Assembly: GCA_000004985.1 (NCBI GenBank)
Contig: GG738870.1
Reading direction: 5' to 3' (one strand)
DNA: 64,000 nucleotides
From: Naegleria gruberi
Taxonomy: Eukaryota
Shown: in pieces, positions 1-45,687 of the stretch
Layout: every line of letters begins with the position of its first letter
How positions within the stretch are numbered: position 1 is the first letter of the stretch
Position numbers and translations under genes: made by a program
Notes under the pieces: generated by a model
What the model was told of the DNA's origin: nothing
What the model saw: only the letters and a program-made list of their open reading frames with translations
Databases searched by the model: none

Positions 1-431
1 ACCCAAACCCAAACCCAAACCCAAACCCAAACCCAAACCCAAACCCAACCCAAACCCAAACCCAAACCCAAACCCAAACCCAAACCCAAACCCAAACCCA
101 AACCCAAACCCAAACCCAAACCCAAACCCAAACCCAAACCCAAACCCAACCCAAACCCAAACCCAAACCCAAACCCAAACCCAAACCCAAACCCAAACCC
201 AAACCCAAACCCAAACCCAAACCCAAACCCCAACCCAAACCCAAACCCAAACCCAAACCCAAACCCAAACCCAAACCCAAACCCAAACCCAAACCCAACC
301 CAAACCCAAACCCAAACCCAAACCCAAACCCAAACCCAAACCCAAACCCAAACCCAAACCCAAACCCAAACCCAAACCCAAACCCAAACCCAAACCCAAA
401 CCCAAACCCAAACCCAAACCCAAACCCAAAC
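1..431. repeat. Terminal telomeric repeat array (CCCAAA)n on the + strand, G-strand unit TTTGGG, about 70 units with a few variant units (CCCAA, CCCCAA).
   Basis: Direct reading: a perfect hexamer tandem array begins at base 1 and ends abruptly at 431. The C-rich strand reads 5' to 3' into the chromosome, as expected for a left chromosome end. Confidence 0.9.
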
Positions 432-706
432 ACTTTTCACATCAACTTGAATCTATTTTTAACTTTTCCGCGCGTTTTTCGGTTTGATCAACCGGCAAAA
501 ATAATTTTGATCAAGTGATTTTATTGCCACTAGCCACCATCATAACTTGATATATATAAATATTTAACAATTTCACATCAGCCGTATATTGTGCCCCATT
601 ACCATCACCATCTTTTGACATCATTTGTGATATATATTGTTAATGTATTTAAGGAGAAAAGCTTAATAAATAGGGGTTGACATGGGATCCAAACCCATTT
701 TGACAT

Positions 707-977
707 TCATCCATATCATACATGGTACATGGCTGATCCACTTGATACCTACAGGGATGTGACAATGACATCTACTATACAGATCATTATGTAATTGATA
801 CAGTACCTTACTGATGGTGAATAAACACTACTGTATCAGTTTCATGACAACTTGATATCATTCAACATGTCAGGAGTGTAATCATGGGAATAATGAATAT
901 CAAGATAATGAAATCATATTAATTTTGAAATCTTTCAATTATAATATCATTTATAGATCAATTAATCAAGGTATTTC
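707..977. repeat. Subtelomeric repeat A, copy 1 (about 270 bp)
   Basis: About 90% identical by eye to 2011..2280. Shared string: tcatccatatcatacatggtacatggctgatccacttgatacctacagggatgtgacaatgacatctactatacagatcat. Confidence 0.8.
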
Positions 978-1139
978 ATTAATTGGTATTGAATTTCATA
1001 TCAATTCATTTAAACCTTAATGACCTATCCTTAGATGACCAACTCAATTTTTAAACTATCATGAATCAAATAACTATTGATACCATTGTNNNNNNNNNNN
1101 NNNNNNNNNNNNNNNNNNNNNNNNNNNNNNNNNNNNNNN

Positions 1140-1590
1140 AACCCAAACCCAAACCCAAACCCAAACCCAAACCCAAACCCAAACCCAAACCCAAACCGAA
1201 ACCCAAACCCAAACCCAAACCCAAACCCAAACCCAAACCCAAACCCAAACCCAACCCAAACCCAAACCCAAACCCAAACCCAAACCCAAACCCAAACCCA
1301 AACCCAAACCCAAACCCAAACCCAAACCCAAACCCAAACCCAAACCCAAACCCAAACCCAAACCCAACCCAAACCCAAACCCAAACCCAAACCCAAACCC
1401 AAACCCAAACCCAAACCCAAACCCAAACCCAAACCCAAACCCAAACCAACCCAAACCCAAACCCAAACCCAAACCCAAACCCAAACCCAAACCCAAACCC
1501 AAACCCAAACCCAAACCCAAACCCAAACCCAAACCCAAACCCAAACCCAAACCCAAACCCAAACCCAAACCCAAACCCAAACCCAAACCC
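1140..1590. repeat. Second (internal) telomeric array (CCCAAA)n, same orientation as the terminal array
   Basis: A tandem hexamer array begins just after a 50-N gap and ends at ...cccaaacccacgactaagg. Variant units include a CCGAAA. It may be a true interstitial telomeric sequence or an assembly artefact next to the gap. Confidence 0.8.
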
Positions 1591-2010
1591 ACGACTAAGG
1601 TCAGACCCAATATTTTGACTTTTATTCATCTTAATTAATTATCTCAATAAATACTCATTATAAATCAATATATTATATATCAATATACTCCAAATTGAAT
1701 ATATAATCATATTATAACATAATATTACATCATTATAATGACTTATGTAAGTTAATTTCATATAATAGATTAGACAATTAGAATATCAATGAAAACATTT
1801 CAGAATCAATTCAAATCAATATATCATCTTATAAATCATGTTTATAACAATATATATCAATTTCAAATACTTTGGTATCTTTTCAAGAAATTTACTATTC
1901 AACTTGTCAACTGACCTATACTAACATTGAAGATAGAAATATATACCACTTCAATTCACTTCTAATACATCTATACATGATAATTAAATATATATATATG
2001 ATTTAGAAGA

Positions 2011-2280
2011 TCATCCATATCATACATGGTACATGGCTGATCCACTTGATACCTACAGGGATGTGACAATGACATCTACTATACAGATCATCATGAAACT
2101 GGTACAGGACCTTACTAGTGGTGTATAAACACTACTGTATCAGTTTCATGACAATTTGAAATCATTCAACATGCCAGGAGTGTAATCATGAGAATTATGA
2201 ATATCAAGATAATGAAATCATATTAATTTTAAAATCTTTCAATTATAACATCATATATAGATCAATTAATCATGGTATTT
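2011..2280. repeat. Subtelomeric repeat A, copy 2, truncated by a 984-N gap
   Basis: Aligns with 707..977 and runs into the N run at 2281..3264. Confidence 0.8.
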
Positions 2281-3264
2281 NNNNNNNNNNNNNNNNNNNN
2301 NNNNNNNNNNNNNNNNNNNNNNNNNNNNNNNNNNNNNNNNNNNNNNNNNNNNNNNNNNNNNNNNNNNNNNNNNNNNNNNNNNNNNNNNNNNNNNNNNNNN
2401 NNNNNNNNNNNNNNNNNNNNNNNNNNNNNNNNNNNNNNNNNNNNNNNNNNNNNNNNNNNNNNNNNNNNNNNNNNNNNNNNNNNNNNNNNNNNNNNNNNNN
2501 NNNNNNNNNNNNNNNNNNNNNNNNNNNNNNNNNNNNNNNNNNNNNNNNNNNNNNNNNNNNNNNNNNNNNNNNNNNNNNNNNNNNNNNNNNNNNNNNNNNN
2601 NNNNNNNNNNNNNNNNNNNNNNNNNNNNNNNNNNNNNNNNNNNNNNNNNNNNNNNNNNNNNNNNNNNNNNNNNNNNNNNNNNNNNNNNNNNNNNNNNNNN
2701 NNNNNNNNNNNNNNNNNNNNNNNNNNNNNNNNNNNNNNNNNNNNNNNNNNNNNNNNNNNNNNNNNNNNNNNNNNNNNNNNNNNNNNNNNNNNNNNNNNNN
2801 NNNNNNNNNNNNNNNNNNNNNNNNNNNNNNNNNNNNNNNNNNNNNNNNNNNNNNNNNNNNNNNNNNNNNNNNNNNNNNNNNNNNNNNNNNNNNNNNNNNN
2901 NNNNNNNNNNNNNNNNNNNNNNNNNNNNNNNNNNNNNNNNNNNNNNNNNNNNNNNNNNNNNNNNNNNNNNNNNNNNNNNNNNNNNNNNNNNNNNNNNNNN
3001 NNNNNNNNNNNNNNNNNNNNNNNNNNNNNNNNNNNNNNNNNNNNNNNNNNNNNNNNNNNNNNNNNNNNNNNNNNNNNNNNNNNNNNNNNNNNNNNNNNNN
3101 NNNNNNNNNNNNNNNNNNNNNNNNNNNNNNNNNNNNNNNNNNNNNNNNNNNNNNNNNNNNNNNNNNNNNNNNNNNNNNNNNNNNNNNNNNNNNNNNNNNN
3201 NNNNNNNNNNNNNNNNNNNNNNNNNNNNNNNNNNNNNNNNNNNNNNNNNNNNNNNNNNNNNNNN
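2281..3264. other. Assembly gap (N run). Other gaps lie at 1090..1139, 4264..4315, 6017..6066, 10658..10715 and 31802..31851.
   Basis: Runs of n. The poly-X ORFs the track lists across them are artefacts. Confidence 0.99.
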
Positions 3265-3457
3265 AACGTTCTCGTCGCAGAGATAATAGATATACTAGGC
3301 ATTTTTGAGTTGACCATTTTTGATTATCTCAATAACTACGGGGAGTTTTTTCACGTGTATTATAGAATAGATATATTAATGTATTTAATAATACATATAT
3401 AAGAACTGGATAGCCAATATTAGCGGTTCGTTTTATGTGATTAGGTTTTCGCCATAC
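3265..3457. repeat. Subtelomeric repeat B, copy 1 (at least 193 bp; 5' end hidden by the gap)
   Basis: Nearly identical to 7688..7889 (aacgttctcgtcgcagagataatagatatacta...gttttcgccatac). Confidence 0.85.
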
Positions 3458-3472
3458 CCAAACCCAACCCCA
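3457..3472. repeat. Short telomere-like remnant cccaaacccaacccca (about 2.5 units) at the junction of repeat B copy 1 and a 1-kb insertion
   Basis: Direct reading. It is absent from the B2-C2 junction at 7889/7890, where B and C abut. Confidence 0.6.
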
Positions 3473-3474
3473 GA

Positions 3475-4035
3475 ATGCCAAACTTGTTAGAAATCATTAA
3501 GCTATTTCAAAACAAGTTGGAAAGGATACGAAAATCACGAAATGATAATTCTCAATTATCTGTACAAGAAATACATGGGTTGTTTACCAACTTTATTCAT
3601 GGTAAAAGTCTTGCTCATCGTAGAATGACGAAAAGACGTAATCAACTCAAGGTTGGAGGAAGGGACTTGGTTCTTGACACCACCCCTCCCCCAGTGAACC
3701 CTCCAACCAACTACCCAATAGTGAACTCCTTTAACCAATCCAGGTTAAGAAACGAAACTATTGGAATTCATTCCAATATACTAAGTAGAATTACAGAACT
3801 AGGAACAGATCCTAAAAAGAGGAAAGTTCCTGATTCAAATCTGAATTCTAAAGATTCAAAGATCAGTAAAAGGAATGAACCTACTACCTTGAAACGTTCC
3901 CAACAGACTACTCTTCAATTTGGCAAGAAGCCAAAGAAGAATGAACTCAATGAAGGAAGTTCATCGTCAGTTGAAGATGCGAATCTTAACAACGGTCAAG
4001 ATTCGAATCAAGGCAACGTTCACGATTCACAGTAA
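3475..4035 (+). CDS. Hypothetical basic, low-complexity protein (186 aa). ATG sits 2 bp after the telomere-like remnant. No recognisable domain.
   Basis: ORF with ATG at 3475 and TAA stop. Lys/Arg/Ser/Asn-rich. Possibly a subtelomeric orphan gene or a spurious ORF. Confidence 0.3.
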   Translation: MPNLLEIIKLFQNKLERIRKSRNDNSQLSVQEIHGLFTNFIHGKSLAHRRMTKRRNQLKVGGRDLVLDTTPPPVNPPTNYPIVNSFNQSRLRNETIGIHSNILSRITELGTDPKKRKVPDSNLNSKDSKISKRNEPTTLKRSQQTTLQFGKKPKKNELNEGSSSSVEDANLNNGQDSNQGNVHDSQ

Positions 4036-4431
4036 TAAGGTCAAGTGAACTTCCACTTGACTCTATTACAGTAGAGCGAGATTAGTATAAATACTAAGCT
4101 AGCTCAATATATTTTTCAATAAAAATTACAAACACAGCCCTAGATTGGCTCGCAAGTTTTCTGGTTTTTATTGTTTTTTCAAAGGGAATAGTTCAAACTC
4201 ATCATCATCATCTTTCTGAACAAGATATTCATCAGTGGAGCCTTCGGGACCCATAACAACAAANCNNNNNNNNNNNNNNNNNNNNNNNNNNNNNNNNNNN
4301 NNNNNNNNNNNNNNNTTTCACTGAAATTGATTTCATGACATGTAGACACTCTAATTAGTATATGGTATCAATTTCATGAATATTGGTTCAGCAGATGTCG
4401 ACTTGTCAACTCTATCACAATACTATAGACA

Positions 4432-6016
4432 TTTGATATAAAATCAAAGATTATGCTCCAACTCGCTCATTTTATATGAAATTAGTCTGGAACTGATAAC
4501 ACACATTCTATACATCAATTTAATACATCTATATATGTTTAGAAACAATTCGTGATACTTTCATTCAGCTAATCGGAACATGTTCAATGTCATAAGTGAA
4601 TATATTCAAGTGTACACTCTATCTCAGTGAAAGTACATCCAATCATTCTGTAACTTTACCAAATACCTTTAATCACACTATTATACATCTGATATCAATT
4701 TTATAGTGTTAGAATTGAATTCAATATGATAATAATAACAATCTGTCAAATTGTCAGAGTTCAACATATAGAATGTAAACCATCTCAGTCATTTTACAAA
4801 ATATCACACTAGTGTCAAATATGAATACACTTCCCTTCATGAGGAGAACAATATGAGAAAGTTTCACATTGATGGCTCAGTATCTTCAAGTCAACTAAGG
4901 AACATCTAAGGTAATCAATAGGGAAGAATCTTATTTCCAAAATTAAATTTTACCATCATATCAAAATCATTGAATAATGAATTATTTATAATATTCAATT
5001 ATTATATTCATGTCAGTAATCAGTGAAGGTGACACTTCTTCAACCTTAGTATACACATCTCAATATCTAGACTGTCAATTCCACTGAACCTTGAAATACT
5101 ACCTATTTAGATGATGGTATGACGACTCTCCATAGTACCATATATGTGAAATTGAATATTGACACTTTTCATCTAGCTATGTTTATAGAGATGGTATCCA
5201 GCAGAGTCAGTTCATAATATCAAATATTGAAATTAGTTCTTTATGGCATATGCGATGTCTAGAAGTGTTTTTGATTATACCAATCTAGTTTAAAGCACTT
5301 TGGCGGAGTTGACACTGTTTAGTTACAAATACATGACATTTGAACCATAGTTTACATTCCATCTCAGTCATTTCAACGATTTATTGATTAATTCCACCAC
5401 CATTATGTTTCTCATACATTGTAGTACAGTTTATATTTCAAGAGTGATTTCTGTGTAGATTATTATAAATCGTAATACTATTCAATACCATTAAAACTCA
5501 ATAGAAGTCAATTCTTCTCATTTTCAAATAGATTATTCAATATAGAAACACATCTAGATAGTTTCCATATCATAAAAGTCAAGCTACTATATATGGTCTT
5601 TGATTAAATTTAAAAATAGACTGCCGTTGATTACTGGAATATTAATTCAAAGCTTGATGATCAAGTTATTGATTGAAAATCAAACCGATTATTGAATATT
5701 GATTATTGAATTGGTGAATAATCAATATTGATAATGTTACTTATTCATATTGCAAATCAACCAGATTCAATCTACAAAGGTTGGTAGTTGCACCACTACG
5801 TGGCGAAACTACCATTCCACGATCAATCAACATAAGAATCACTTCCATTCAACTCAATTTGACCGTTATAATCAATAAATCAATGAAATGTTCCTTTATT
5901 AGCAATACCTATTCAATCTAATCAGTAGATTCACGTCCCANACATTTGACTTCTAAAAGTCCATAATTCAAAAGTTAGTACTGACCTGACCTTTAAATAT
6001 CTATCAATACAAGAAA
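4432..6016. repeat. Subtelomeric repeat C, copy 1 (about 1.6 kb, non-coding, ends at a gap)
   Basis: About 88-90% identical by eye to 7890..9486 (ctatagacatttgatataaaatcaaagattatgctcc ... ctttaaatatctatcaatacaagaaa). No ORF over 70 codons. Confidence 0.8.
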
Positions 6017-7687: not shown

Positions 7688-7889
7688 ATAATCCGGAACG
7701 TTCTCGTCGCAGAGATAATAGATATACTAAGAATTTTTGAGTTGACCATTTTTGATTATCTCAATAACTACGGGGAGTTTTTTCACGTGTATTACAGAAT
7801 AGATATATTAATGTATTTAATAATACATATATAAGAACTGGATAGCCAATATTAGCCGTTCGTTTTATGTGATTAGGTTTTCGCCATAC
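7688..7889. repeat. Subtelomeric repeat B, copy 2
   Basis: Matches 3265..3457. Followed directly by repeat C copy 2. Confidence 0.85.
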
Positions 7890-9486
7890 TATAGAACTTT
7901 GACATAAAATCAAAGATTATGCTCCAAATCACTTATTTTATATGTAATTAGTCTAGAATTGATAACACACATTCTATACGCCATGTATATACATCTATAC
8001 AAGTTTAAAAACAATTCATAATACTTTAATTCAGTCAATCAGTAAATGTTCAATGTCAACAGTATATATATCCAAGTGTACGCTCTATCTCAGCGAAAGT
8101 ACATCCAACCATCATGTAACTTTACCAGATACATTTAATCACACTATTATACATATGGTATCAATTACATACTGTTAGAACTGAATTCAGTAGGATAATA
8201 ATAACAATCTGTCAAATTGTCACATTTCAACATATAGATTGTATACCATCTCAGTCAATTTACAAAATATCATACAAGTGTCAAACATGAATACACTTCC
8301 CTTGATGAGGACAACAATCTGAGAAAGTTTCATGTTGATGGCTCAATATCTTCAAGTCAACAAAGGAACATCTAAGGTTGTCAATAGGGAAGAATCATAT
8401 TTCCAAAATTAAATTTTACCATCATATCACAATCATTGAACAATGAATTATTGATACAAGAATCATATGTTCAATTGTTATATTCATGTCACTAATCAGT
8501 GAAGGTGACACTTCTTAAACCTTAGAATACACATCTCAATATGTAGACAGTCAATTCCACCGAAACTTGAAATGCTATCTGTCTAGATGATACAATGATG
8601 ACACTCCATATGTGTAATTGAATGTTGACACTTTTCATCTTGTTATATTTATAGGGATGGTATCCAACAGAGTCAGTTCACAATATTAAATATTGAAACT
8701 CATTCCATAGGACAGGTTTGATGTATAGAACGGTTTATTATTGAATGTATCAGTTTGATATAATTTGATGAAATTGACACTGTCAAGTCACCATTACATG
8801 ACAAATAGACCATAGTTTACATTCCATCTCAGTCATTTCAACGAGTCGTTGAATAATTCTACCACCATTATGTTTCGCATACATTATAGTACAGTTTATA
8901 TTTCAAGAGTGATTTCTGTGTAGATTATTATAATCGTAATACCATGCAATACCAATAAAACTCAATAGAAGAGTTAATTCTTCTCATTTACAAATAGATT
9001 ATTCAATATAGAACACATCTAGATAGTTTCCAGATCATAAAAGTCAAGATACTATATATGGTCTTTGATTAAATTTAAAAATAGACTGCCGTTAATTACT
9101 GGAATATTAATTCAAAGCTTGTTGATCAAGCTATTGATTGAAATCAAACCGATTATTGAATATTGAATATTGAATTGGTGAATAATCACTCTTGATAATG
9201 TTACTTATTCATATTGCATGCAAATCAACCAGATTCAATCTACAAAGGTTGGTAGTTGCACCACTTCGTGGCGAAACTACCCATCCACGATCAATCAACA
9301 TGTGATTCACTTCCATTCAACTCAATTTGACCGTTATATTCAATAAATCAATGAAATGTTCCTTTATTAGCAATACATATTCAATCTAACGAGTAGATTC
9401 ACGTCCCAAACATTTGAATTTTCTCAAAGTCCATAATTCAAAAGTTAGTACTGACCGGACCTTTAAATATCTATCAATATAAGAAA
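7890..9486. repeat. Subtelomeric repeat C, copy 2
   Basis: Collinear with 4432..6016, including the conserved hairpin ggtagttgcaccac(t/a)(a/t)cgtggcgaaactacc. Confidence 0.8.
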
Positions 9487-10032
9487 TGAAAACATCAAAT
9501 TTACATCATTAATAGATGATAAGAATTATAATCAATGATATGAATCTTCACTAAGTAATCTCTTAAATAACCCAAATAAATCAACTCTGAATCCTAACCA
9601 AACCCAATAAAATGAGGAGAGATTCATGCTATGATTAATTGGAAGAGCCACATAGATTTTGGGTACTATCTGAACTGAAATGAGGTAGAAAGAGTACAAT
9701 CTTCAAGAGCAAACAATTTAGGTCCTATTTATGTTGGATTTCTGATGGTTAGGTTCTCCCGGGCAATCCTAAAGTCACCTCACACAATAAAGTAGATGAT
9801 AATATTTCTATTTTGAGGTTGTTCATTTATTTTTTTTGCCAATTAAATATTTTCTAGCTCTCTAATTTCAATCGTTGCCTTCCCCATAACTACTTTACAA
9901 TTTACAAAGATTCAAACACCTGCCCACAAACAAACCATGTAGATTCCTAAAATCAAGTCATTTTTGAAAAATTCATTTAAATTACAGATTTATTTTTACA
10001 GAGCTCGACAGTTGACTATACAAAGTGCCAAT

Positions 10033-10985
10033 TTAGAAACACTTTCTGTGAACGATACCTGGACCGGCATCCTCATATTCTTCCTTTGTGATCCACATCT
10101 GCTGAAAGGTCGAAAGGCTCGCTAAGATGGAACCACCAATCCAGACAGAGTATTTTCTTTCTGGTGGAGCAACAACCTTAATCTTCATAGAGGCTGGAGC
10201 CATAGCAGTCAATTCCTTGGTCATTCTTTCAGCAATACCTTCGAACATGGTAGTACCACCAGACAAGACAACGTTACCGTACAAGTCCTTTCTGATATCA
10301 ATATCACATTTACCAATTGAATTGAAAGTAGTTTCATGAACACCAGCAGCTTCCATACCAATGAAGTTAGGTTGGAACAAGACTTCTGGACATCTGAATC
10401 TTTCATTACCAACAGTAATGACATTACCGTCTGGCAATTCGTATGACTTTTCAACTGATGATGATTCAGCAGCAACCTTCATTTCAGCTTCAAAGTCCAA
10501 AGCAATATAACAGAGCTTTTCCTTAATATCTCTGACAATTTCTCTTTCAGCAGTAGTATTGAATGAGTAACCTCTTTCCATCAAAATCTTCATCAAATAA
10601 TCAGTCAAGTCACGACCAGCCAAATCCAATCTCAAAATAGCGTGTGGCAAAGCATAANNNNNNNNNNNNNNNNNNNNNNNNNNNNNNNNNNNNNNNNNNN
10701 NNNNNNNNNNNNNNNGGTGATGCCAGATCTTTTCATATCATCCCAATTGGTAACAATACCGTGTTCAATTGGATACTTCAAAGTCAAGATACCTCTCTTT
10801 GATTGAGCTTCATCACCAACATAGGCATCCTTGTTACCCATACCAACCATAATTGATTTTTGCTTTGGTCTACCAATAATTGAAGGGAAGACAGCTCTTG
10901 GAGCATCATCACCAGCAAAACCAGCTTTACACATACCAGAACCGTTGTCAACAACGAGGGCTTGAACGTCTTCACAGAAGGACAT
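10033..10985 (-). CDS. Actin (conventional, highly conserved). The CDS is interrupted by a 58-N assembly gap that hides about 60 codons and breaks the frame.
   Basis: N-terminal part [41 protein letters not shown]...[16 protein letters not shown] (ATG at 10983..10985). C-terminal part [20 protein letters not shown]...[37 protein letters not shown]...IVHRKCF, with stop TAA at 10033. The C-terminal track ORF actually starts at a TTG; the real frame continues into the gap. Confidence 0.95.
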
Positions 10986-11199
10986 GTTTAATTATTTGTT
11001 TTTTTTGTTTGTGAATTTTGTCAAGTCATCGGAATGTGAGTTAAATAATAATTGTGTGATGACAGGTTCAATGATTTGTTCAAGTTGGGTTGATGGGTGA
11101 ATGACTTGTTTACAAAACATGAAGGTCAACTAGTCACTTGACTTCAAAAACCTTATTAGAGATACTGTGATTGAGTAGGTATTTCTTGCAATTCGTTTT

Positions 11200-14100
11200 T
11201 TATTTTCTCTTTTTAAATTCTGAAAGCATTGGATTTGAAAGAATATCTTGTGCTTGTGGTCTAGTTAAATTATCCTTCTCAAGCATACTCAATACCAACT
11301 CAATCACTTGTTCAGAATATCTTTCTCCAAGTGTTTTCCGCAATACTTGAACAACCTCTTTCTGATCTTTATGTCCATACAGTTCAGAAATTGAAGTTAC
11401 AACGTCCTTTGTCATTATTTGATATAAAACTACTCCTAAACTGAATATGTCAGTGTTGAAATAATATTTGTAACCAGAAACCATTTCAGGAGATGCAAAT
11501 ATTGGATCAATATTATTCTCAAAACAATTCAGTCCAAAATCTGTGATAACACTTTCAATAGCATCAGTAGTCAAACTCTTGATCAGTAAATTGGATGTTT
11601 TGATGTTGCCGTGAATACTTTTCTCGGTACAATGAGCAAATTCCAAGGCTAAACATAATTGGTAAATTAATTGTTTGATTAAGTTTTCTGATAGATTGAA
11701 ATTTCTATTGGTCAGCTTTGAGAAATCTCCCATTTCAAAGTAATCCATATCAATAAAAAGCTTTGGATCTTCTGTACTAATAAACATTTCATTAATTTTA
11801 GAGATATGAGGATTGTTGGTATTCATAAGATGCACTGCTTCTTTTAGGAATTTGTTCAAGTCATCCTCTGATTTGTAATTGACAATCTTAATGGTTTTTG
11901 GATATGTTTTGACTGTATCAATTACCTTAAATGTTCTTCCACTTCCTATTCTTGCAATATTGGTATATCTCAAATGAGGATTGAAAACCTCACTAATATA
12001 GGCACTGTCTAATTTGAAACTGTATGCACTTGTTGGTTTGACATATTTGGCTTGGGATGGCAAGTTATCATAGAATAGCTCAATATCTCCACTTTTCACA
12101 TTAGCTACACTTGTTGAAGAATCTGCTGCTTTTTTCTTTCTCATCATCCATACAATAATCAACACAACAATAACGATAATGGTAACTATAATTAAAATAC
12201 CCAGAATCGGAACAATAACAGCTGCTGCTATTGCTCCATCATTTGTGCCTTGTTGAGTATTATCAATTTGTCTCAGATCACTGGATTGGCTAGTTGGTGG
12301 TGGATTTGGTGGAATAATTATTGAATTAATATATGGTAACTCTTGGATGGTGAACAAACTTAAATGAGATACTTGACATTCTAAATCAAAATACATCAAA
12401 TCACCCACTCGTTTGGTAATAGAAAGGAATGTTTTGATTCCTGATTGAGACCAATTATTGGAAGAGTCAAGGTAAACACATGATGCATTGATAGAGGTTT
12501 TGTTACTTGTTGATAAACCTTCAAATTTGAAAATGATTGGATTAATCAAGTTATCAACCTTAACCAAATTACTATCCTTGTTAAAAATGGATAATTCCAA
12601 AGAAGGTCTATTACTCATTATATTTCCATTGTCAGTATCATTATTAATCATGGTTAATGCATAGAATATTATAGAATTGTACCCTACAGTTTGAATTTGT
12701 GTTGAAAAATCATTTGGGAATGATATTTTGACATTGATTCCATTTTTAGAAATGTCAAATGTTTTGGAATTGAATTGATTTACAAGAGGTAACACTTGAC
12801 TGAAAATAGATCCATCAGATGATGACTGTCTGGTAAGTTTGTAATATTCGAAATGATATCTTGCCATTTCACTTTGCTTTGTTGCGTTATTAGAATAAAT
12901 ATTGGAAAGCAGAGTTTTCAAATTAGCAATTTCCTCAAAATGATTTGAATCCAAAAGAGTTTTGAAAATACTTGTAGAATAGTATTGTCCTGCATTGCTC
13001 ATTGATGTAAATATCCAATTTAACCACCATTCCAATTCTGAACTTGTTGAAATATTAGAAACGTTATTCAATAATTTGAAAATATTCGAAAGTGAAGGAA
13101 TAATTAATTGAACAACCTTTTCATCAACTTGATAGGTTAGTGAAGGAATATCTTTCATCATTACCAACATGTCAACAAGCAGTGAAACAAATTTGTTAAT
13201 TGTACCACCATTCAAAGTAAGAATGTTTTCACTCACTTGAGTTAATGAACCATTTTGAATAATCAAAGATAGCAAAGCATTCAGTGAGTTAATTGTGTCA
13301 ATAGTGAGTGGCTTGGATTGTTTTAGAATTGTTAATTCATCTCTTACATAATCAATTCTTGAAACTAAATTATTGGAATACCATGAAATTCTTTCTGGTA
13401 AGTTCATTGTTAAATTCCTTGTAAATTCACTGATTGATCCAAACTCATTCACCATTTTGACTCTTAATATTAAATTACCATCATAAAATGGAAATGAGGT
13501 TACAATTGTCTTTTTCAAAGTATTCGAAATAATGAATAACCTTTCATATTGTGGAGTGTCTATTTCCATAACAATAGAGGATACTCTGTCTTGTGGGAGA
13601 TTAATACAATTAATTGCAATTAAACTCTCATAAGCAGTGTTATCTGAATTCTTTAAATTGTCAACTGAACAAGTAAATCTTGGTTTAAAATCAATTCTTG
13701 TGGAAAGAGATAATTTTGATGATCCAACTGAATTTTTAACAGTCAATTCAAATTCATACCATTCTCCTTCTATCAAATATGTTGAATCAATATTCAAATA
13801 AATTTCAAATGAGTTTTCAATAAGAGGTTTGAAACTTGTAAATGATCCAAGACTTGGAATAGCATTTCTCAATTTTCCTGAAGCCAATTTCCATCCATAT
13901 TCCACAACTGCACTGTCAGATTCAACAATACAATGTAAACTTAAAGAACTGCCAGATGGATAAATAGTTGGAATGTAATCTGGTGTTATTTTCGGTGCTG
14001 AAATATCTGAATTCACAAGTTCAATAAAACCAAAGTATGAGTAAACATTTTCTGAAATGGTAACATTAACACCAATCATAAACATTCCTACTGATAATCC

Positions 14101-17100
14101 CATACTGTTAAAATCTACTTGTAATTGATTTAAATTTTGAGCATTACATAAATTTTGTGCAATGATAGTTGACTTGTCCGAACTAGTTCTGTAACAATAC
14201 CAAGAATAAGAAGTAGGTGATAAGGACTTGACAAATGAATCATCACTTTCTAAGCCAATAGTTAATTTGTTCAAGCTCAAGGAATAAGTTCTATTGACAT
14301 TTGTTAATCTAAAATCAATTGTCGGAATTTTGGTTGGAATTGAAAAAGGATAACTGATTTGTACTGTTGATTGAGTGTTAGTTTGAGTAGAAGTTACTTT
14401 CAAATTGGATGATGATGTACTATTTGTAATAATTCTAAACAGCTGCTTATTCAATAATTCTGATCTAATACCACCAAATAATTCAAACGAAAGTGAACTA
14501 TTCACACTAATTGATTGTATTTCAAATAAACAATCATTCTTTCCAACGCAATTCTCTTCTCTTGAAGTCAAAATGTTAAATGAAGGAAGTGATGATTCAC
14601 CTAACTTGATAGTTTTTGAAATTGAAGAAATAGAATTCATATCATTTGAACTTTTCAGTGAAATATCAAATGTGTTAATACCTGTCAAAATTGAACTGTA
14701 AGGAATTCTAATTACTGTCTTGTTTGAGTAATTATTCAACCATGAATTAACAGAACTGGTTGGTGAAGTCCAGTATTGAGATATTCTCTTGAAATGATGA
14801 TAGGTTGAGGGAATGACTGACCTAATTATTAAATCTTGGGATGATGGAATGAATTCAGGTAAATCCATAATTGCTGGGAATGATGCACCTGTCTCTGACA
14901 AGTCAACTCTAATTGAGAAACCAAACTGGGCCTTAATAATAGAACCGTTCGTAATAGAGTGTTCATATCCCAAAAAGAGTTTAAAATTATTTCTTCTCCA
15001 TTGACATTTGGTCAACTCAACTTGTCCAAGCTTAGCAATCTCATTCTTTTCAATTATCTTGTCGCAGCCATCAATCACAGAATCATTCAAATAGGTATTC
15101 AGAACATCAGAATATGAATAAATTAATGCATTTTCAATATCCAAATTAACACTAATTAATTCGCACTCCTTTCCAACATAATCCTTTGCACATTTGCAAT
15201 TATTTGGAGAAACACATTGACCCTTACTTGAACAAACATTTGGATCTGTTTGTATCTTTCCATAACATTCACTGTATTGACATTCATTGCCTGAAGATCC
15301 ATTTTGACAGTTGCATTGATTTGTTCTTAGACAGATTCCTTTTCCTGAACACACACTTGCATTATTTGAAAGAATTCCATAGCATTTGATGAGTGAACAG
15401 TCAAATCCATAATAATCCTTATTACATGTACAATTATTGTATCCTGAACAAACTCCATGACCTGAACAAACAGTGGCATTGTCAAATGTAATGGAATAAC
15501 ATTTCACCTTGTCACATTTATCTCCTCCCCATTCATATGAGCACAAACAACGTCCAGTAGTGGCAGAACATTGATTTCCATTCTTACAAACTGTCTGATT
15601 TCCAGCTCTAGAGCAATTGAATGTCTCACAATTTGATCCAGAGTATCCTAATTGACAAGAACAAATATTTGGAGAAATACAAGAACCAACAGAAGAACAG
15701 ACACTTGCATTCAATCTTGACTTTCCAAAACAATCAAACAATTCACAATTCGATCCATAAAATTCTGATTTACATCCACACTTATTGAACTGAGTACAAT
15801 TTCCTGAACTTGAACAAACAGTTGAGTTGAGTGAACTCACACCAAAGCAATCAAACTTTTCGCATTCCTTACCATAATATCCTTGTGAACAAGTGCAGTT
15901 ATCAATTGAAGAGCAAACACCTCTGGAAGAACAAACATTGGATGAATTAACAGCCTTTCCATAACAATCATAAATTTCACAATTACGTCCATAATAATTT
16001 TTGGTACAGTTGCAAGTGTCAACGTTTGAACAATTACCAACTGAGGAGCAAACATTTTTCAGATCATTCCTTACTCCAAAACAATTATAGTATTGACAAT
16101 TAGTTCCATAAAATCCTGTCTGACAAGTACAATTATTCAATGAACTGCAAACTCCCTTTCCAGAACAAACAAGTGTAGAATTCTTTAACACTCCATAACA
16201 TGAATATTGTTCACAGTCTCTTCCACTATATCCATCTTCACATGAACAATTATTTGGAGCAATACATTGACCATTCGAATTGCAAACTTGATTATTATTT
16301 GCTAAAATATTCGAACATTTTGGAAATTCACAATTAGGTCCTCCATACTGTTGTGGATTTGTGCAATTACAAACATTTGCATCAATGCATGAACCCCTTC
16401 CAGAACAAACTCCATTGCCATTTGCTAAAATGTTTGCACATTTTGGAATGTCACAATATTGACCTCCCCAGGAATTTTGACATGTGCAATTATTTGTGCC
16501 AATACATGCTCCTCTTCCTGAACAAACAGATGAATTACTTGCTAGAATGTTCTTACACATTGGAAATTGACAATTTTCTCCTCCCCACAAAGTATTATTA
16601 AAACATGTGCAATTGTCAGGTGTAAAACAAGATCCTCTACCTGAACAAACATCTGCTTGACCCTGAACCACTCCAAAACAAACAGGAATACACTCATTCA
16701 ATGTTACATTATAGAAATATGTCGAATTACAATAAGGTGTCAACTTTCTAATTCTATTATTTCCACTATCAAGAATAAAAACTTCCTTCTGTGAATTGAC
16801 AGCAACATCAACAGGACTATTCAATCTCAAAGTATCATTTCCTGAAGATTTTGCAATACCTGATATCACAGAAACAGTTCCACTCATTCCAACAAATTCA
16901 ATCATACGAATGACATGATTCATTTTGTCGGCAATGTAAATTTCCTTACTAGGTCCATAAGCAACACCAGTTGGTGAATTAAATTTTGCAATTGTTGTGT
17001 TTCCATCAATATAATCTGCAGTTACACCTCCTATGGTTGTAGAAGTACCAGATACATTCCTGGATAGTCTATGCAAGTCAGTTTCGGATATAAACATTTC

Positions 17101-17703
17101 AGTTGAGGAAAAGACTGCTAATCCATTTGGTTGAGTGGCTGCTATTGGCTGTGTTGTAATTATTCCCGATGAAACTTTTCTAATTTTAAGAAATTCACTA
17201 AAGTAAATGTCACCATTCGAAAGTGTGGAAATATATTTTGGACTGAAAATGTTAGTGGATGTGGCATTAACATTATCTTTGGTAGTACCAGATATTCCAA
17301 CCGTTCCAGCTATTGTCCTAATTATTCCATTGCTGACTTCTCTAATAGCATGATTCGAAGTGTCAGCAATCAATAATTTGCCATCAATTGTGACAGCTAA
17401 ACCACTGGGAGAATAAAGCTTGGCAGATGTTGCATTCGTATTAGTATCAGATCCAAAAGCTCCAGTTCCAGCCACAATTGTTATTGCCCCACTATTCGAA
17501 TCTATTCGTTTTACTAAATGATTTTTCGTATCTGAAACGTAAATTTCACCACTATTTCCCAAAGCAATTCCTTCAGGTTGATTAAACCCTACCAAACTAA
17601 TATGTTTCACAGTATACGAAGGTTGAATCGACAATACGAAACACAAATTCACAACTATTAGAAACAACAATACTAAACTCCTCACACCAACATGTTTCGT
17701 CAT
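11200..17703 (-). CDS. Giant type-I membrane receptor (2167 aa). Signal peptide, then NHL-repeat beta-propeller, then about 20 tenascin/EGF-like Cys repeats, then a long extracellular domain, one TM helix, and a cytoplasmic protein-kinase-like domain predicted to be a pseudokinase.
   Basis: ATG at 17701..17703, N-terminal hydrophobic signal (LVLLFLIVVNLCFVLS). NHL-like repeats (YVSDTKNHLVKRID, LLIADTSNHAIREV, IYIADKMNHVIRMI, VFILDSGNNRIRKL). Repeated CSGRGSC...C.C...G.NC modules. TM segment AIAAAVIVPILGILIIVTIIVIVVLIIVWMM followed by RKKK. Kinase motifs IGSGRTF, KTIKIV, DFG and SPE are present, but the catalytic loop reads HGNIKTSN instead of HRDLKxxN, so the catalytic Asp is absent. Confidence 0.8.
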   Translation of the reverse strand: MTKHVGVRSLVLLFLIVVNLCFVLSIQPSYTVKHISLVGFNQPEGIALGNSGEIYVSDTKNHLVKRIDSNSGAITIVAGTGAFGSDTNTNATSAKLYSPSGLAVTIDGKLLIADTSNHAIREVSNGIIRTIAGTVGISGTTKDNVNATSTNIFSPKYISTLSNGDIYFSEFLKIRKVSSGIITTQPIAATQPNGLAVFSSTEMFISETDLHRLSRNVSGTSTTIGGVTADYIDGNTTIAKFNSPTGVAYGPSKEIYIADKMNHVIRMIEFVGMSGTVSVISGIAKSSGNDTLRLNSPVDVAVNSQKEVFILDSGNNRIRKLTPYCNSTYFYNVTLNECIPVCFGVVQGQADVCSGRGSCFTPDNCTCFNNTLWGGENCQFPMCKNILASNSSVCSGRGACIGTNNCTCQNSWGGQYCDIPKCANILANGNGVCSGRGSCIDANVCNCTNPQQYGGPNCEFPKCSNILANNNQVCNSNGQCIAPNNCSCEDGYSGRDCEQYSCYGVLKNSTLVCSGKGVCSSLNNCTCQTGFYGTNCQYYNCFGVRNDLKNVCSSVGNCSNVDTCNCTKNYYGRNCEIYDCYGKAVNSSNVCSSRGVCSSIDNCTCSQGYYGKECEKFDCFGVSSLNSTVCSSSGNCTQFNKCGCKSEFYGSNCELFDCFGKSRLNASVCSSVGSCISPNICSCQLGYSGSNCETFNCSRAGNQTVCKNGNQCSATTGRCLCSYEWGGDKCDKVKCYSITFDNATVCSGHGVCSGYNNCTCNKDYYGFDCSLIKCYGILSNNASVCSGKGICLRTNQCNCQNGSSGNECQYSECYGKIQTDPNVCSSKGQCVSPNNCKCAKDYVGKECELISVNLDIENALIYSYSDVLNTYLNDSVIDGCDKIIEKNEIAKLGQVELTKCQWRRNNFKLFLGYEHSITNGSIIKAQFGFSIRVDLSETGASFPAIMDLPEFIPSSQDLIIRSVIPSTYHHFKRISQYWTSPTSSVNSWLNNYSNKTVIRIPYSSILTGINTFDISLKSSNDMNSISSISKTIKLGESSLPSFNILTSREENCVGKNDCLFEIQSISVNSSLSFELFGGIRSELLNKQLFRIITNSTSSSNLKVTSTQTNTQSTVQISYPFSIPTKIPTIDFRLTNVNRTYSLSLNKLTIGLESDDSFVKSLSPTSYSWYCYRTSSDKSTIIAQNLCNAQNLNQLQVDFNSMGLSVGMFMIGVNVTISENVYSYFGFIELVNSDISAPKITPDYIPTIYPSGSSLSLHCIVESDSAVVEYGWKLASGKLRNAIPSLGSFTSFKPLIENSFEIYLNIDSTYLIEGEWYEFELTVKNSVGSSKLSLSTRIDFKPRFTCSVDNLKNSDNTAYESLIAINCINLPQDRVSSIVMEIDTPQYERLFIISNTLKKTIVTSFPFYDGNLILRVKMVNEFGSISEFTRNLTMNLPERISWYSNNLVSRIDYVRDELTILKQSKPLTIDTINSLNALLSLIIQNGSLTQVSENILTLNGGTINKFVSLLVDMLVMMKDIPSLTYQVDEKVVQLIIPSLSNIFKLLNNVSNISTSSELEWWLNWIFTSMSNAGQYYSTSIFKTLLDSNHFEEIANLKTLLSNIYSNNATKQSEMARYHFEYYKLTRQSSSDGSIFSQVLPLVNQFNSKTFDISKNGINVKISFPNDFSTQIQTVGYNSIIFYALTMINNDTDNGNIMSNRPSLELSIFNKDSNLVKVDNLINPIIFKFEGLSTSNKTSINASCVYLDSSNNWSQSGIKTFLSITKRVGDLMYFDLECQVSHLSLFTIQELPYINSIIIPPNPPPTSQSSDLRQIDNTQQGTNDGAIAAAVIVPILGILIIVTIIVIVVLIIVWMMRKKKAADSSTSVANVKSGDIELFYDNLPSQAKYVKPTSAYSFKLDSAYISEVFNPHLRYTNIARIGSGRTFKVIDTVKTYPKTIKIVNYKSEDDLNKFLKEAVHLMNTNNPHISKINEMFISTEDPKLFIDMDYFEMGDFSKLTNRNFNLSENLIKQLIYQLCLALEFAHCTEKSIHGNIKTSNLLIKSLTTDAIESVITDFGLNCFENNIDPIFASPEMVSGYKYYFNTDIFSLGVVLYQIMTKDVVTSISELYGHKDQKEVVQVLRKTLGERYSEQVIELVLSMLEKDNLTRPQAQDILSNPMLSEFKKRK

Positions 17704-18097
17704 TTTTTTGTGCTAATCGTAACCACGCTTTCATTGCGACATACGGATCACACCCCTTTCGAATAGTCATCAAGCCTTTCAAGCAACCAATATTCTGTGC
17801 ATTTGGTTTTAACATTTTACGTTTCATGCACAACATTGAAAGATCGTAATGACATTGTGGGCTGGAAGGACCAATAGGATTTTTAAATATTCAAATATGG
17901 CAATAGATGCGCATCGAGATTTACTTTTACAATAGATGTTATTGGTGGATCTGCCCAATTGCAGAGTTGATGAAAATATCTTGCATTGTTGTAAAGTGTT
18001 AAAAAATTGCTATTCGAAACGGGTATTAGAATGTGTGTTGATGACTTCCTTTTGTGAAAATAAGCGATTTTGATTCGTTCATTTATGTTGGAAAAAA

Positions 18098-19195
18098 ATG
18101 CAGCATATTGTAGAGATTCTTCCACTTGAAATAATCGAAACTATTCTTGCCTATTTGCCACTTGTCGAATTGTTATTTTGTGCTTCAAATGTTTGCAAAC
18201 AATTTCGGGAGGCTGCCTTTCCTAGTCTTTCCATCAATTTTCTTCAAGAAATTTCGCTGTTGGCCACAGATGAAACTCTGGAAGAAATTAAAACTTTGCA
18301 ATTGAACGGATTCAATGAATATTCCCAAATATTTACCAACAAGTTTGGAAGAATAATTATCAGAAAAATTATGAGAGAACATGTTTTTGAATTGGCAAAG
18401 ACATTAGTGAAAGCAAATAAGGAATTGTGCAAAATTGCTGATGCGAATTCAGATATCAAGCCGAAAGATAAGGATTTCAGTTCAGTTCTGGCTGATGATC
18501 ATGAATTGATGTCTGAATTCGAAGTGACTTGTCAGTTTTTTACATATTTCAAAGGTGCTGAACCAAAAGAACGTATGGAAACAAATCAAAGCAAAACTTC
18601 AATATTTAGCAAATTCACTTCACTTTTTAAAAAAGAAAATTCTCAAGAAAAATCAACTGTTGTTGCTAGTTCAAAAGAAAGAGAACAATCGTTTAAGTGT
18701 ATTATGCTTGGTGATTCAGCTGTTGGAAAGTCATCTTTAATAGACAATTGTATTTTGAGGAATAGACCAGGTACTGATAGAACTATTGCAAGTGGATTTC
18801 CAACATATACTGAACTTTCGTACAAGTTGAAAGAGAAAGTTGTTTTGAAAATGTGGGAAATTACAGGAATAATGAAAGCTGAAACAATTTCTCTTTATAG
18901 TGCAAAGATTAATTTGCAAATCTTCATGTTTGATTTTGGAACTTATTTCACAAGTTCATTTCCAAAAGTAGAAGAATATTTGAAAATGATGAAAACAGAA
19001 TGTGAAACAATATTGATTGGAAATAAGAAAGATCTTTTGGAGGATGAGAATTGTAGTAAAACAGCTCGTGAATTTGCTTTGAAAAAGATGAAGGGAACTC
19101 TATATGTTGAAATGGATACAATAGATATTCAAATGGCACATAGTGTGATATTATATTCTGCATTGATATTGTTTTTTACGAATAATAAATTGTAA
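18098..19195 (+). CDS. F-box protein with a C-terminal atypical Ras-superfamily small-GTPase-like domain (365 aa)
   Basis: ATG at 18098. N-terminal F-box ILPLEIIETILAYLPLVELLFCASNVCKQFREAA. C-terminal G-domain motifs: G1 LGDSAVGKSS, G4 GNKKDL. G3 is the degenerate WEITG (no DxxGQ) and G5 is non-canonical. Confidence 0.55.
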   Translation: MQHIVEILPLEIIETILAYLPLVELLFCASNVCKQFREAAFPSLSINFLQEISLLATDETLEEIKTLQLNGFNEYSQIFTNKFGRIIIRKIMREHVFELAKTLVKANKELCKIADANSDIKPKDKDFSSVLADDHELMSEFEVTCQFFTYFKGAEPKERMETNQSKTSIFSKFTSLFKKENSQEKSTVVASSKEREQSFKCIMLGDSAVGKSSLIDNCILRNRPGTDRTIASGFPTYTELSYKLKEKVVLKMWEITGIMKAETISLYSAKINLQIFMFDFGTYFTSSFPKVEEYLKMMKTECETILIGNKKDLLEDENCSKTAREFALKKMKGTLYVEMDTIDIQMAHSVILYSALILFFTNNKL

Positions 19196-35055: not shown

Positions 35056-35554
35056 TGAATGTCATTTCAGAATTTACATTAAAATAATTACAATTAAATG
35101 TTCAAGATAGAAATTTGAAGTCTCTTCGAAACTATTAGGTTAATAATTTATTCATTCCATTTATTTAGAGTGTGAAATATAAGGAATATCCTTTAACTAT
35201 TAAGGAACTTTGAACGGATGTGTATATTAATAAACAGTGCAGCCCCTACCAATTTCTGACCTTCCTCCTTCACTACTGGGTGTATAATCTTAACACAATT
35301 AAATTAGCACATGTCCACCTTGTTAAGGCAGGCACATTTTGTATTACTGGGGATTTATGTTAGGCAAAATCGCCTTATCAGAATGGAAGGAACCTATTTT
35401 GTCTCCTCCTTGGTCTTCTAGAACCACTAAAACACTAGACACAGCACCAGATCGCGTTTCATCAACAACTTCAAATCGTTGTTTAACATCCATGGAACCT
35501 TCTCTCAACAACCACACGAAAAAAAAACAGATGATTCTTCATCGTCATCATTCC

Positions 35555-38500
35555 ATGAAAAACCTCTGCGCATTGCCACTGCTACTAATATTATGCTTTC
35601 AAACAGTATTGCTATTCTTCCATTCATCATGCATTCAGCCAGTCAGAGGTGAAACATGTTTTGGAATTGCATCGAGCAGTTCAAAAACTTGTTCTGGAAG
35701 AGGTGTTTGCACACCAGATAATTTGTGCACATGTAATGTGGATTCATCATTGGGTTCTTCCTCTCCCTATTCTGGATTGAACTGTGAAGTAGATTTGTGT
35801 TTTCCTAATGCAATTATTTCTTATAATTGCAATGGAAATGGACAGTGTGAAAATGGTGTTTGTAAATGTAAGGAGGGAACTTCTGGATTCATGTGCCATT
35901 TGAATAGTACCAAATTGATGTGTTTTGGTGTGAGTGGAGGTGATTCAAGAGTTTGTTCTGGTCATGGAAAATGTTTGGACACGAACGTGTGCTCATGCCA
36001 AGATGGTTATACAGGAACTGAATGTCAAATTCCACTATGTTATGGTATTCCATCAACTTTGACATCAAGCGTTTGCTCTGGTAAAGGTACATGCAAGGGA
36101 CAAGATACATGCGAATGTCAATCAGGTTTTTCTGGAGCTAATTGTGAAGTACTTGGTTCAGTATCTTCGCAAGGCTCATCTATTGCAATTCCAGCATCAT
36201 TTTGTGGATCAATAATTGATAGTGATAACAGAACATGTAATGGAAGAGGAAAATGTATTGCCAATGACACATGTCTATGTATGGAAGGTTACAATGACCA
36301 TGACATGTGTCAGAGTACATTCTGCTTTTCAATTCCACAATATGATGCACTGGTTTGCAGTGGACATGGCAACTGCATCGATTACAATACATGTAATTGT
36401 ACTTCTTCTGGAAATTCTTCATTGAACTTTATTGGAAATGAATGTGAAATAGTTCAATGTTTAGGAAGAAATTTCCATTTTTACAATAGCACAGATTCAA
36501 ATGTTTGCAATGGAAATGGTTTCTGTTCCTCTACCAATGATGGTTGCATTTGTAAGGATGGTTATTACGGAGATGCATGTGAACAATTTTCCTGTTTTGG
36601 TATTTCATCAACAAGTGAAATTTCTTGTTCTGGAAATGGACAATGTTTAGATATTGACACTTGCTCATGCTACTCAAATTTACAACAAGGTTATTGGAGT
36701 GGAGAAAATTGTGATATCTGTGATGAAAATTACTCTGGAACGCATTGTAACGAAACAGTAACTTGTCAATCTGAAACTTTTTGTAATCTTTTAGGATCTT
36801 GCTTTAACAATACATGTCAATGTGAAGAACAATACTCGGGACCATCCTGTAGTTTGTGTCAGGGTGGTTTCTATGGTCCATTCTGTAACCATAGCTGTTC
36901 CAGAGTGGACACATGTCATGGACATGGAGAATGTTCAAGAGATGGAATTTTCTGTGAATGTGATCAATCTAATGAGGATGGTTATTGGGATGATTTGTCA
37001 ATGTGTCAAAAATGTAAGAATGGATATTTTGGATCAAGCTGTTTATTGAGAATCGGTGAAAGTTTCGGTTTAAATTCATTGGGAAATGAAATTGTAATTC
37101 CATTAGTGATTCGTCCAAATAATTTGCAGAATTTACTGAATTGCTCTTTGATATTGGTTTTGGAAAGTAGAAGAATGCTTGGATCCTTCCCTGAATGCTG
37201 GATTGATTCGAATAATATGTTGAGAATTACCATTCCAAAAGATTCGACATTTTCTCCAATTCTTAATTCTGATAGAATTGTTATAATTCCAAGTGGTTTT
37301 GAAAATGGTATTCAGAAAAACGAAACCATTTCCCTTCCTTTTGATTCTATCAATACGAAACTTGTCCTTCCAGTTGCCAAAATCTATTCGAATTCAACTT
37401 ATATTCTTCCAAATAGTGATTTAACTTTAATTGGTTCAAATTTACTAAGAATTGAAAGAGAAAGAAATCTGACATTTGAATGGTCTTTGAAGAGTAGTGA
37501 TTCTGATTTTGCCTTATTTCAATCGAATTTGAATTCAAGAATTTCGAGTGGAAAATTTGGTCAACTGACAATTACAAAATCTGACATTCCATCAACTGTT
37601 ACTACATTCCAGATCCAATTGATTGTTAGAAATCAAATTAATAATATTTCCAGTAATCCTACTCATATGACATTCACTGTATTGAAATCTACAACTTTAC
37701 AACAAGTTTACAATGGAGCTTACAATTTGAAATTCAATTTACCAACTCAAATTCTTTATGTACATAATGACATGTTACCATACAAGTTAAAATACTCTCT
37801 ATTACAAGATAATTCACCTATTTCACTTCCAAACTCTAGTTATTCCATTCAATTTTCAATTAGTCCAACACCTTCGGATAACACTTTCGTTACTTTACAG
37901 AATTCGAATGGTATTTTAACAATTTCCTCAGCGTATAACTATGACAATCAGAATAATGTTTATGAAGGATTCGATGGTCAAGTGTTTAACTCTTCCAAGT
38001 TTTATCAAATTATTGGAACTGTCACTCATGTGCCAAGTGGAAAAATTGTCACTCAAAAATCAATCAAATCATTCTTTATTAACAGAAATAGTGGAGCGAG
38101 ACCTGATTTTGATACTGGTAGTCTAAATCCTCTTCCAACACAAGCAGGTCCCGCAGCCATAACCATCCTAACCAATGGACACACTTTTGATTCAGTTGAC
38201 TGGGATTGTTTCGAATGGTCTGGAGTTGGTGGAAAGTGCAGTAATGAATGGATGGCAGCAATTGCAGCATCCAAAGATTCCAACATCCTAAACGTTCCAC
38301 TCGACACTTTTTTCCTTGCTAAGAATCCTCTTTACGTCAGAGCTAAGGTTGTGATTGCTGGCATTCCCTATTATCTCCAAAGCTCAGTAACCCCATCTCA
38401 GGGATTTGGTTTCAAGACTTTGAATGGAGCAACTTTGTACAGTATCATTGCTGGAATGCAGTTGGCCAAAATTGATCGAACCAATTCTCACACAGCTGTC

Positions 38501-41680: not shown

Positions 41681-43065
41681 TCTATTTTACGTTATTTTTT
41701 TTTGCTTGGTTGGTGTAGACTGGACAAATGGGAGCATGTTTTATAATCCTCTTCAATATTTGGTGGGTTTGACTCAAAGATGTCAAGAAAGATTGTGGCG
41801 ACAATATATATGGAAACAAACCATTGTAGCTAGACACCCAACAACAACATTGGTATTCGTATTGCCGTTAGGTTGTCAGATTGTCGTAATGAAATTGTCA
41901 TGAACAAAGAGAACGCCCATTGATCCTTGTAATGAAAAAAATCATTGAAAATTGACAAATTGTTTAACTGGGGGATTTGATCCTGATTTATGTTGATGCC
42001 AAACAATTAATTTCAATGAATTTGGTAGTTACAAATTGCATATCAGCATTATCTTGCGCAATCAAAAGATTGATATAGTGAGAGTTGTTGCCATAAAATC
42101 TGTGGAGATATTGAAGTAAGTTACAGGAACAGACTAGAATTGACAATTTTTAAAAGACACGTAACACAATTTTGATTTGCAATCAATCTTATGGAAAGGT
42201 TGTTCACTGGTTTTGAATTATTGTTGTCTTCAGTAAGAGAACAACAATCGATAGAGAACTAGAGTATCCGAAATTTACAATTTACTACGACAATTTAGAG
42301 CATCTGAAAAAGAATGGAAACAATTACAACATGTTCCATTTTCGAATGTTGAAACCAAATCCTTTGACCTTAGTCGTAATCCATTCACACAAATCCTAAA
42401 ACATGTTTTTATTGGCGGAAAGTCAATTGTAAAGTCTTCAAAGATACCGATATGAAATCGTACTTTCAAACGCATTTTCAATGTCTAAAACCAATGGGAG
42501 ACATCTTTGAAAATGATGTTTACAACGGTAGTGTGTATTTATTGACAGATTTGAATAACACTTGACAGTAGTGCACTATGATATGCGTTGATGGTAAATT
42601 ATTTGTCACCATTTCAATCAAAACAACAAATCTAGAGCGAAAACGAACTAATTTGCTACTTTCCTTCATTGTGTAATTTGCCCCTGATTGTTCATAGCTC
42701 TTTATCCTGAGTTTCGTACAAAAACTGGTTTCGCATATAGGACAAGTACACGATGACAGTGAAAGTTGGGGAATTTGATTTAGCCTCTCAAGAATCTAAT
42801 AACATATTCGATTAGATGTTGCTATTTTATGGTTGAAACACATCTCTTTGAGTTATTCCTGTGTAATCATTTCACATAATGGAAAGTTGGATGTTTAGAG
42901 GATCATCCTAATCAAATTACAATAAGTTTTTGATCATCTACAATTAATTATCGTCATGGTTCACTATTAATACCTCAAAAACAATCTACAGTTTTTTTTC
43001 TGAAACAAACTCTAAGATGTTGGACGACGTCAAAAATCAAACTGTCAAAAATTAACAGCAAAAAA

Positions 43066-45474: not shown

Positions 45475-45687
45475 ACAGTAAACAGAACTCTTCTCGGTAA
45501 TCTTGGGATGTTCATCTTTCTGATCTTGTTTTGGCCTATTCCAACGTAGATCTCTCCTTGTTTCAGATCTCATATCAGCTATTAAGCACATGTGTATTAT
45601 ATACACATGTATTTATTTGTAATATAATTTGAAAACACGAGTTTATCTAACAGATCACAATTTTAGCAATCCTAGTTGATTTATTAA

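Follow-up and report, generated by a model that had tools for sequence, protein, structure and literature searches.

The 64-kb stretch of Naegleria gruberi DNA analysed here, referred to below as the window, opens with two long arrays of the hexamer CCCAAA/TTTGGG, the first at its very end and the second a short distance inside. We read TTTGGG as the telomere unit of N. gruberi and the second array as a scaffolding artefact in which two chromosome termini were placed in series; to this joint reading we assign a probability of about two in three (0.66). The unit is real and diagnostic of the taxon, but it is already known for N. gruberi. An artefactual origin of the doubled array is the most likely explanation suggested by the anatomy of the assembly.

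Two telomere-type arrays at the start of the window

The terminal array (array 1) occupies positions 1–431 and the second, seemingly internal one (array 2) positions 1140–1591, as delimited by Tandem Repeats Finder and by a count of units. Both have the same polarity, with the C-rich (CCCAAA)n on the plus strand and the G-strand, TTTGGG, on the minus strand, running 5' to 3' toward the left end. Tandem Repeats Finder describes array 1 as 72.3 copies of a period of 6 (98% matches, score 834) and array 2 as 76.0 copies of the same period (97% matches, score 869). Counted unit by unit, the 72 units of array 1 comprise 68 CCCAAA, three CCCAA and a single CCCCAA, and those of array 2 comprise 71 CCCAAA, two CCCAA, one CCGAAA and one CCAA. 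Both arrays are near-pure, with about 94% exact units. The terminal array had been described in an earlier note on this DNA as a pure (CCCAAA)n; the array is indeed there, but strict purity does not hold.

The two arrays are alike in length (431 bp and 452 bp) and are spaced 709 bp apart. Measured from the proximal junction, the variant units of array 1 and array 2 do not occupy the same positions, so neither array was copied from the other. With at most one mismatch allowed, CCCAAACCCAA has 142 matches in the window against 1.24 expected from shuffles. Runs of (TTTGGG)n, (CCCTAA)n or (CCCCAA)n were not found outside the two arrays anywhere in the 64-kb window.

These are the properties of telomerase-type repeats: a short, G/T-rich tandem unit, a G-strand oriented 5' to 3' toward the left end and 97–98% matches. 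Furthermore, array 1 reaches window position 1, and the gene-poor repeats that come after it, about 10 kb in all, fit a subtelomere. From the orientation of the array, this gene-poor stretch and the published terminal location of the hexamer, we infer that the window starts at an N. gruberi chromosome end.

Contig anatomy around the arrays

Each array belongs to a small contig of its own. Contig 1 spans positions 1–1089 (1089 bp) and contig 2 positions 1140–2280 (1141 bp), and a scaffold gap of 50 N (1090–1139, by N-run count) separates them. In contig 1, array 1 is followed by a unique telomere-adjacent sequence, U1 (432–696, 265 bp), by the first copy of a repeat designated A (697–976, plus strand) and by further unique sequence up to 1089, so that the right end of the contig is non-telomeric. 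In contig 2, array 2 begins at the first base, directly after the 50-N gap, and is followed by another unique telomere-adjacent sequence, U2 (1592–2000, 409 bp), and by the second copy of repeat A (2001–2280, plus strand), which is ended by a gap of 984 N (2281–3264). The unique sequences were delimited by alignment and self-BLAST, and the copies of repeat A by alignment. The earlier account of the second array, as about 450 bp long, in the same orientation, some 0.7 kb inside and bordering a 50-N gap, is confirmed by this layout, in which array 2 abuts the gap at 1090–1139.

The two copies of repeat A are 93% identical over 280 nt (697–976 versus 2001–2280), and their core (707–976 versus 2011–2280) reaches 93.7% over 270 nt in self-BLAST. 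Homology between the two contigs begins abruptly at TCATCCATATCATACATGG and ends where contig 2 meets the 984-N gap. Repeat A sets in 266 bp past array 1 and 410 bp past array 2, close to the 300–420 bp that had been noted before. No similarity between the 265 bp of U1 and the 409 bp of U2 was detected by alignment or self-BLAST; when the window was compared with itself by sensitive BLAST, U1, U2 and repeat A gave no additional copies. The proposal of a tandemly duplicated telomere-adjacent unit is not supported, since the stretches at 432–696 and 1592–2000 are unrelated to each other; what aligns between the two modules is repeat A only (270–280 bp, 93–94%).

Closest to the evidence is another option raised in the same note, that of an unresolved chromosome end, as array 2 stands at a contig boundary behind a placeholder gap of 50 N. 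The N. gruberi reference is a gapped draft of 1977 contigs in 784 scaffolds, and the eight N-runs in the window fit such a draft. Since five of the eight are exactly 50 N long, this length suggests a default or floor value, a placeholder and not a measured distance. In the sequenced contigs, no non-telomeric sequence is joined to the left (distal) side of array 2. A contiguous arrangement with non-telomeric DNA on both sides, as befits an interstitial array, was found only for three relics of 9–15 nt (at 689, 3457 and 9597) and not for 1140–1591. Array 2 is probably not interstitial, because a contig boundary directly behind a placeholder gap marks its start and its distal junction is unseen.

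The features to be expected of a scaffolding artefact occur here together: an array at a contig boundary, a small neighbouring contig, a placeholder gap and a common diverged repeat (93%). Contigs 1 and 2 would each represent a small terminal contig, made up of a telomere, a distinct unique stretch and a diverged copy of repeat A, and would derive from two different termini, either paralogous chromosome ends or diverged homologues. Mate pairs of both contigs would lead into shared or collapsed subtelomeric repeats, and a scaffolder unable to merge sequences that are 93% identical may have placed them serially, with a placeholder of 50 N in between. Contigs of about 1.1 kb that carry arrays of about 430–450 bp are what would be expected if a few unique-anchored reads reached out into the telomere.

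The serialisation of paralogues or haplotypes is a known artefact of scaffolded draft assemblies, and an order of small contigs with paralogous blocks that are 81–98% identical, as found in this scaffold, is the setting in which scaffolders serialise paralogous ends. The likeness to such cases lies in the small contigs, the diverged repeat copies, the placeholder gaps and a telomere array that stands first in each contig, and it is read here from assembly anatomy rather than from read pairs.

Subtelomeric blocks and short telomere-like tracts

The region behind the two terminal contigs is a mosaic of duplicated blocks that extends over several small contigs to about 10.6 kb. A block at 3265–3457 (plus strand) is 98% identical to 7697–7889, and a repeat of about 1.6 kb, with its first copy at 4415–6016 (plus strand), is 81–96% identical to 7881–9486 (87.6% over 1615 bp). 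The second copies of both blocks are contiguous and together occupy 7697–9486 (plus strand), as delimited by alignment and self-BLAST. The roughly 10 kb after array 1 are almost free of ORFs and internally duplicated; dense long ORFs start at an actin-like gene.

Short telomere-like tracts are scattered through this mosaic. The tract CCAAACCCA (about 687–697, 9–10 nt) lies in U1 just before repeat A and was recognised by a match of k = 9 to telomere-derived sequence at 689. The tract CCCAAACCCAACCCC (3457–3471) is in telomere orientation and stands exactly where the 98% block homology stops, and a further one at 9597–9607, in the same orientation, lies about 110 bp inside the end of the 7697–9486 block. 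Telomere-derived 9-mers occur at 689, 3456–3459 and 9598 within 8.7 kb of subtelomere, all in C-strand orientation, where about 0.15 sites would be expected on one strand; the remaining 53 kb of the window contain none on either strand. The tracts are possibly relics of old internalised telomeres, and telomere internalisation seems to have shaped these subtelomeres.

Subtelomeres of yeast, with their X and Y' elements, and of humans are mosaics of duplicated blocks split by interstitial telomere-like tracts. The N. gruberi subtelomere resembles them in its 81–98% identical duplicated blocks and in its short, telomere-oriented tracts, one of them exactly on a block boundary. It differs in that its tracts are just 9–15 nt long and its one long internal array is only putatively interstitial. 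Moreover, no coding element of the Y' type was found in the N. gruberi subtelomere, which has almost no ORFs.

An environmental metagenome contig of 893 bp (L124; ENA ERZ929261 k127_12646) is 100% identical to window positions 3713–4263 (551 bp) and diverges on both sides. Its right part runs past 4263 into what is a gap in the window (4264–4315) and carries further telomere-like tracts such as AACAAACCCAAACCCAATT. On the left, it breaks off inside an ORF of 186 aa (EFC43936.1, 3475–4035), at a TGGGATCCAAACCCA motif that is also present at window positions 682–696. These comparisons suggest that the 186-aa "gene" EFC43936.1 is not a conserved gene but a mosaic of subtelomeric sequence.

The TTTGGG unit in Naegleria gruberi and in other organisms

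An in-silico scan of a public assembly has already put TTTGGG forward as the candidate telomere of N. gruberi (Fulneckova et al. 2013, Genome Biol Evol 5:468, PMC3622300). For that survey, 143 genome assemblies were searched for minisatellites in terminal position and correct orientation, and N. gruberi was counted among those with a "convincing pattern" of repeats at their ends (PMC3622300). Organism, hexamer and kind of evidence (terminal position and orientation) are the same as here, and in what the survey reports of this candidate nothing essential differs. Its main text, as far as we found, does not discuss a doubled array or the structure of the subtelomere (PMC3622300).

Accordingly, because the unit was published in 2013, its description as non-canonical is true though already known: correct, but not new. 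The suggestion that the repeat unit could help to identify the taxon was sound, the window being from N. gruberi and the published candidate telomere of this species being TTTGGG. The placing of a TTTGGG G-strand at a chromosome end likewise agrees with a polarity that is canonical for a left end and with the hexamer published for N. gruberi.

We read the (CCCAAA)n/(TTTGGG)n arrays as the telomeres of N. gruberi, with the TTTGGG strand running 5' to 3' toward the terminus. By analogy with the general mechanism of telomerase, the enzyme presumably copies an RNA template that contains CCCAAA. An Rfam scan of the window matched no family. The literature searched contained no report of an experimental test of TTTGGG telomere function in Naegleria, the support being in silico, and on Naegleria telomerase RNA, subtelomeres and chromosome-scale telomeres it gave nothing beyond the 2013 survey. 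For N. gruberi, a nanopore (ONT) dataset and a Flye assembly are available (PMC12695648).

The hexamer is also used elsewhere. Paramecium telomerase makes TTTGGG as a variant mixed with TTGGGG, both from one template. The likeness to the present arrays lies in the TTTGGG hexamers; the difference is that TTTGGG is a mixed variant there, whereas here 94% of the units are TTTGGG, TTGGGG accounts for 1 of 72, and the arrays belong to a heterolobosean that uses the standard code.

A metagenome scan for (CCCAAA)6 returned at least 120 loci. Among the matches listed, 26 were terminal in telomere orientation versus 8 in the wrong orientation, and none of the at least 120 loci listed showed DNA or translated similarity to the window, so that these loci added no other Naegleria subtelomere. 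At least 13 contigs of JAESGV01, a metagenome-derived assembly, end in correctly oriented TTTGGG arrays (L007, L029, L031, L042, L054, L077, L078, L082, L083, L084, L102, L115 and L120) and have 22–39% G+C. Long standard-code ORFs were present in all five large JAESGV01 contigs that were checked, and L084 encodes two proteins of the PPR-DYW deaminase type, for which no relative was found closer than plant PPRs (22–24% identity). Judging from these contig ends, at least one other low-GC eukaryote, represented in JAESGV01, appears to use a TTTGGG telomere unit.

Origin of the window and its genes

Homology search tied the window to the reference of the organism. The proteins EFC43936.1 (186 aa), EFC44040.1 (2167 aa) and EFC44042.1 (1044 aa) match window ORFs exactly and come from one N. 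gruberi scaffold of 418,085 bp, and an alpha-mannosidase ORF of the window is 100% identical to a predicted N. gruberi protein on the same 418,085-bp scaffold. The mannosidase relatives in N. lovaniensis and N. fowleri lie far inside their contigs, so they give no telomere information. At 33.7% G+C, the window is dense in long ORFs that use the standard code. Its longest ORF measures 2170 aa, and reading with the ciliate code lengthens it hardly at all.

The first Pfam-recognisable gene inside the subtelomere is the actin-like gene at 10033–10985 (minus strand), which we take to be actin from its translation, read by eye. It is split by a 58-N gap (10658–10715), owing to which the annotated model is probably incomplete. 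The 186-aa ORF at 3475–4035, which has no domain, precedes it.

Two very large EGF-repeat proteins are encoded at 11200–17703 (minus strand) and 35327–39199 (plus strand). The first of these (2167 aa) combines NHL repeats and many teneurin-like EGF repeats with a C-terminal protein kinase domain, and by this predicted domain order it is built like a receptor kinase. The DNA at 15185–16658 has internal periodic repeats of 117 nt. At 18074–19192 (plus strand), an ORF joins an N-terminal F-box to a GTPase domain of the Ras/Roc type, an unusual pairing. The EGF/NHL receptor kinase and the F-box/Roc domains had hinted at a dictyostelid source, a possibility dismissed by the homology search.

In the ENA metagenome PRJEB11402, from which L124 also comes, one contig (L001) is 97.3% identical in DNA to window positions 41988–46727 and another (L125) is 98.2% identical to 10918–18348. 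Given these identities, a strain closely related to the N. gruberi that was sequenced is present in the environmental sample.

Alternative readings of the doubled array

The most serious alternative takes the scaffold at its word. Array 2 would be a real and recent interstitial array, formed when an end with the order telomere, U2 and repeat A captured another with the order telomere, U1 and repeat A by recombination or break-induced replication; the outcome would be tandem telomere-associated modules split by telomeric repeats, as with the Y' elements of yeast. The order in the scaffold itself supports it, as does the presence of repeat A after both arrays. The short relics in telomere orientation at 689, 3456 and 9598, with none in the other 53 kb, point to telomere internalisation and make a recent, still-long interstitial array plausible; the relic at 3457 lies exactly on a block boundary, that at 689 just before repeat A, and more such tracts follow past 4263 in the metagenome contig L124. 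Against this, the distal junction of array 2 is missing and the right end of contig 1 has no telomeric repeats. A 452-bp array that is 97% pure would need a very recent event, yet the copies of repeat A differ by 6–7%, and the known relics are merely 9–15 nt long. We consider such a capture unlikely. Its generalised form is slightly less likely still: N. gruberi ends would be stacked modules (telomere, variable segment and repeat A) split by genuine interstitial TTTGGG arrays, each module having been gained through telomere capture or through break-induced replication, with the 9–15 nt tracts as decayed older rounds and the 452-bp array as a very recent one.

Heterogeneous ends in the culture could also bring two arrays into one assembly, if some copies of the chromosome had been cut short and healed at 1592, where a telomere was added de novo, others reached the telomere at 431, and the assembly contained both. 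U1 and U2 do abut telomere repeats without a common junction sequence, as expected for healing at arbitrary sites. The longer version, however, needs non-telomeric DNA before U2, and the window offers no such contig or junction; it also requires a long version with two copies of repeat A spaced by 1.3 kb, which nothing supports directly. Healing of this kind is therefore improbable. A last reading, that the arrays are ordinary hexanucleotide microsatellites or that the window is ciliate DNA, for instance from Paramecium, touches the telomere identity itself. Metagenome contigs from many organisms commonly contain (CCCAAA)6 runs in their interior, and Paramecium mixes TTTGGG with TTGGGG. Here, however, CCCCAA makes up just 1 unit in 72, both arrays have one polarity and each opens a contig, and for N. 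gruberi a terminal location of the repeat has been published. The exact N. gruberi protein matches and the long standard-code ORFs, up to 2170 aa, led us to reject an origin from Paramecium or another ciliate, and we regard the reading as a whole as very improbable.

Conclusions

The reading of two N. gruberi termini, each capped by TTTGGG repeats and joined in series by the scaffolder, has its main relevance for curation. The taxon is confirmed by the hexamer, which also points to a probable true N. gruberi chromosome end at this end of the scaffold. Given the doubled array, order and copy number in the first ~10 kb of the scaffold should be treated as unreliable in work on subtelomeres or synteny. 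If the internal array were real, it would give a first view of how a heterolobosean subtelomere is built, though the mechanisms would be ones familiar from yeast and humans.
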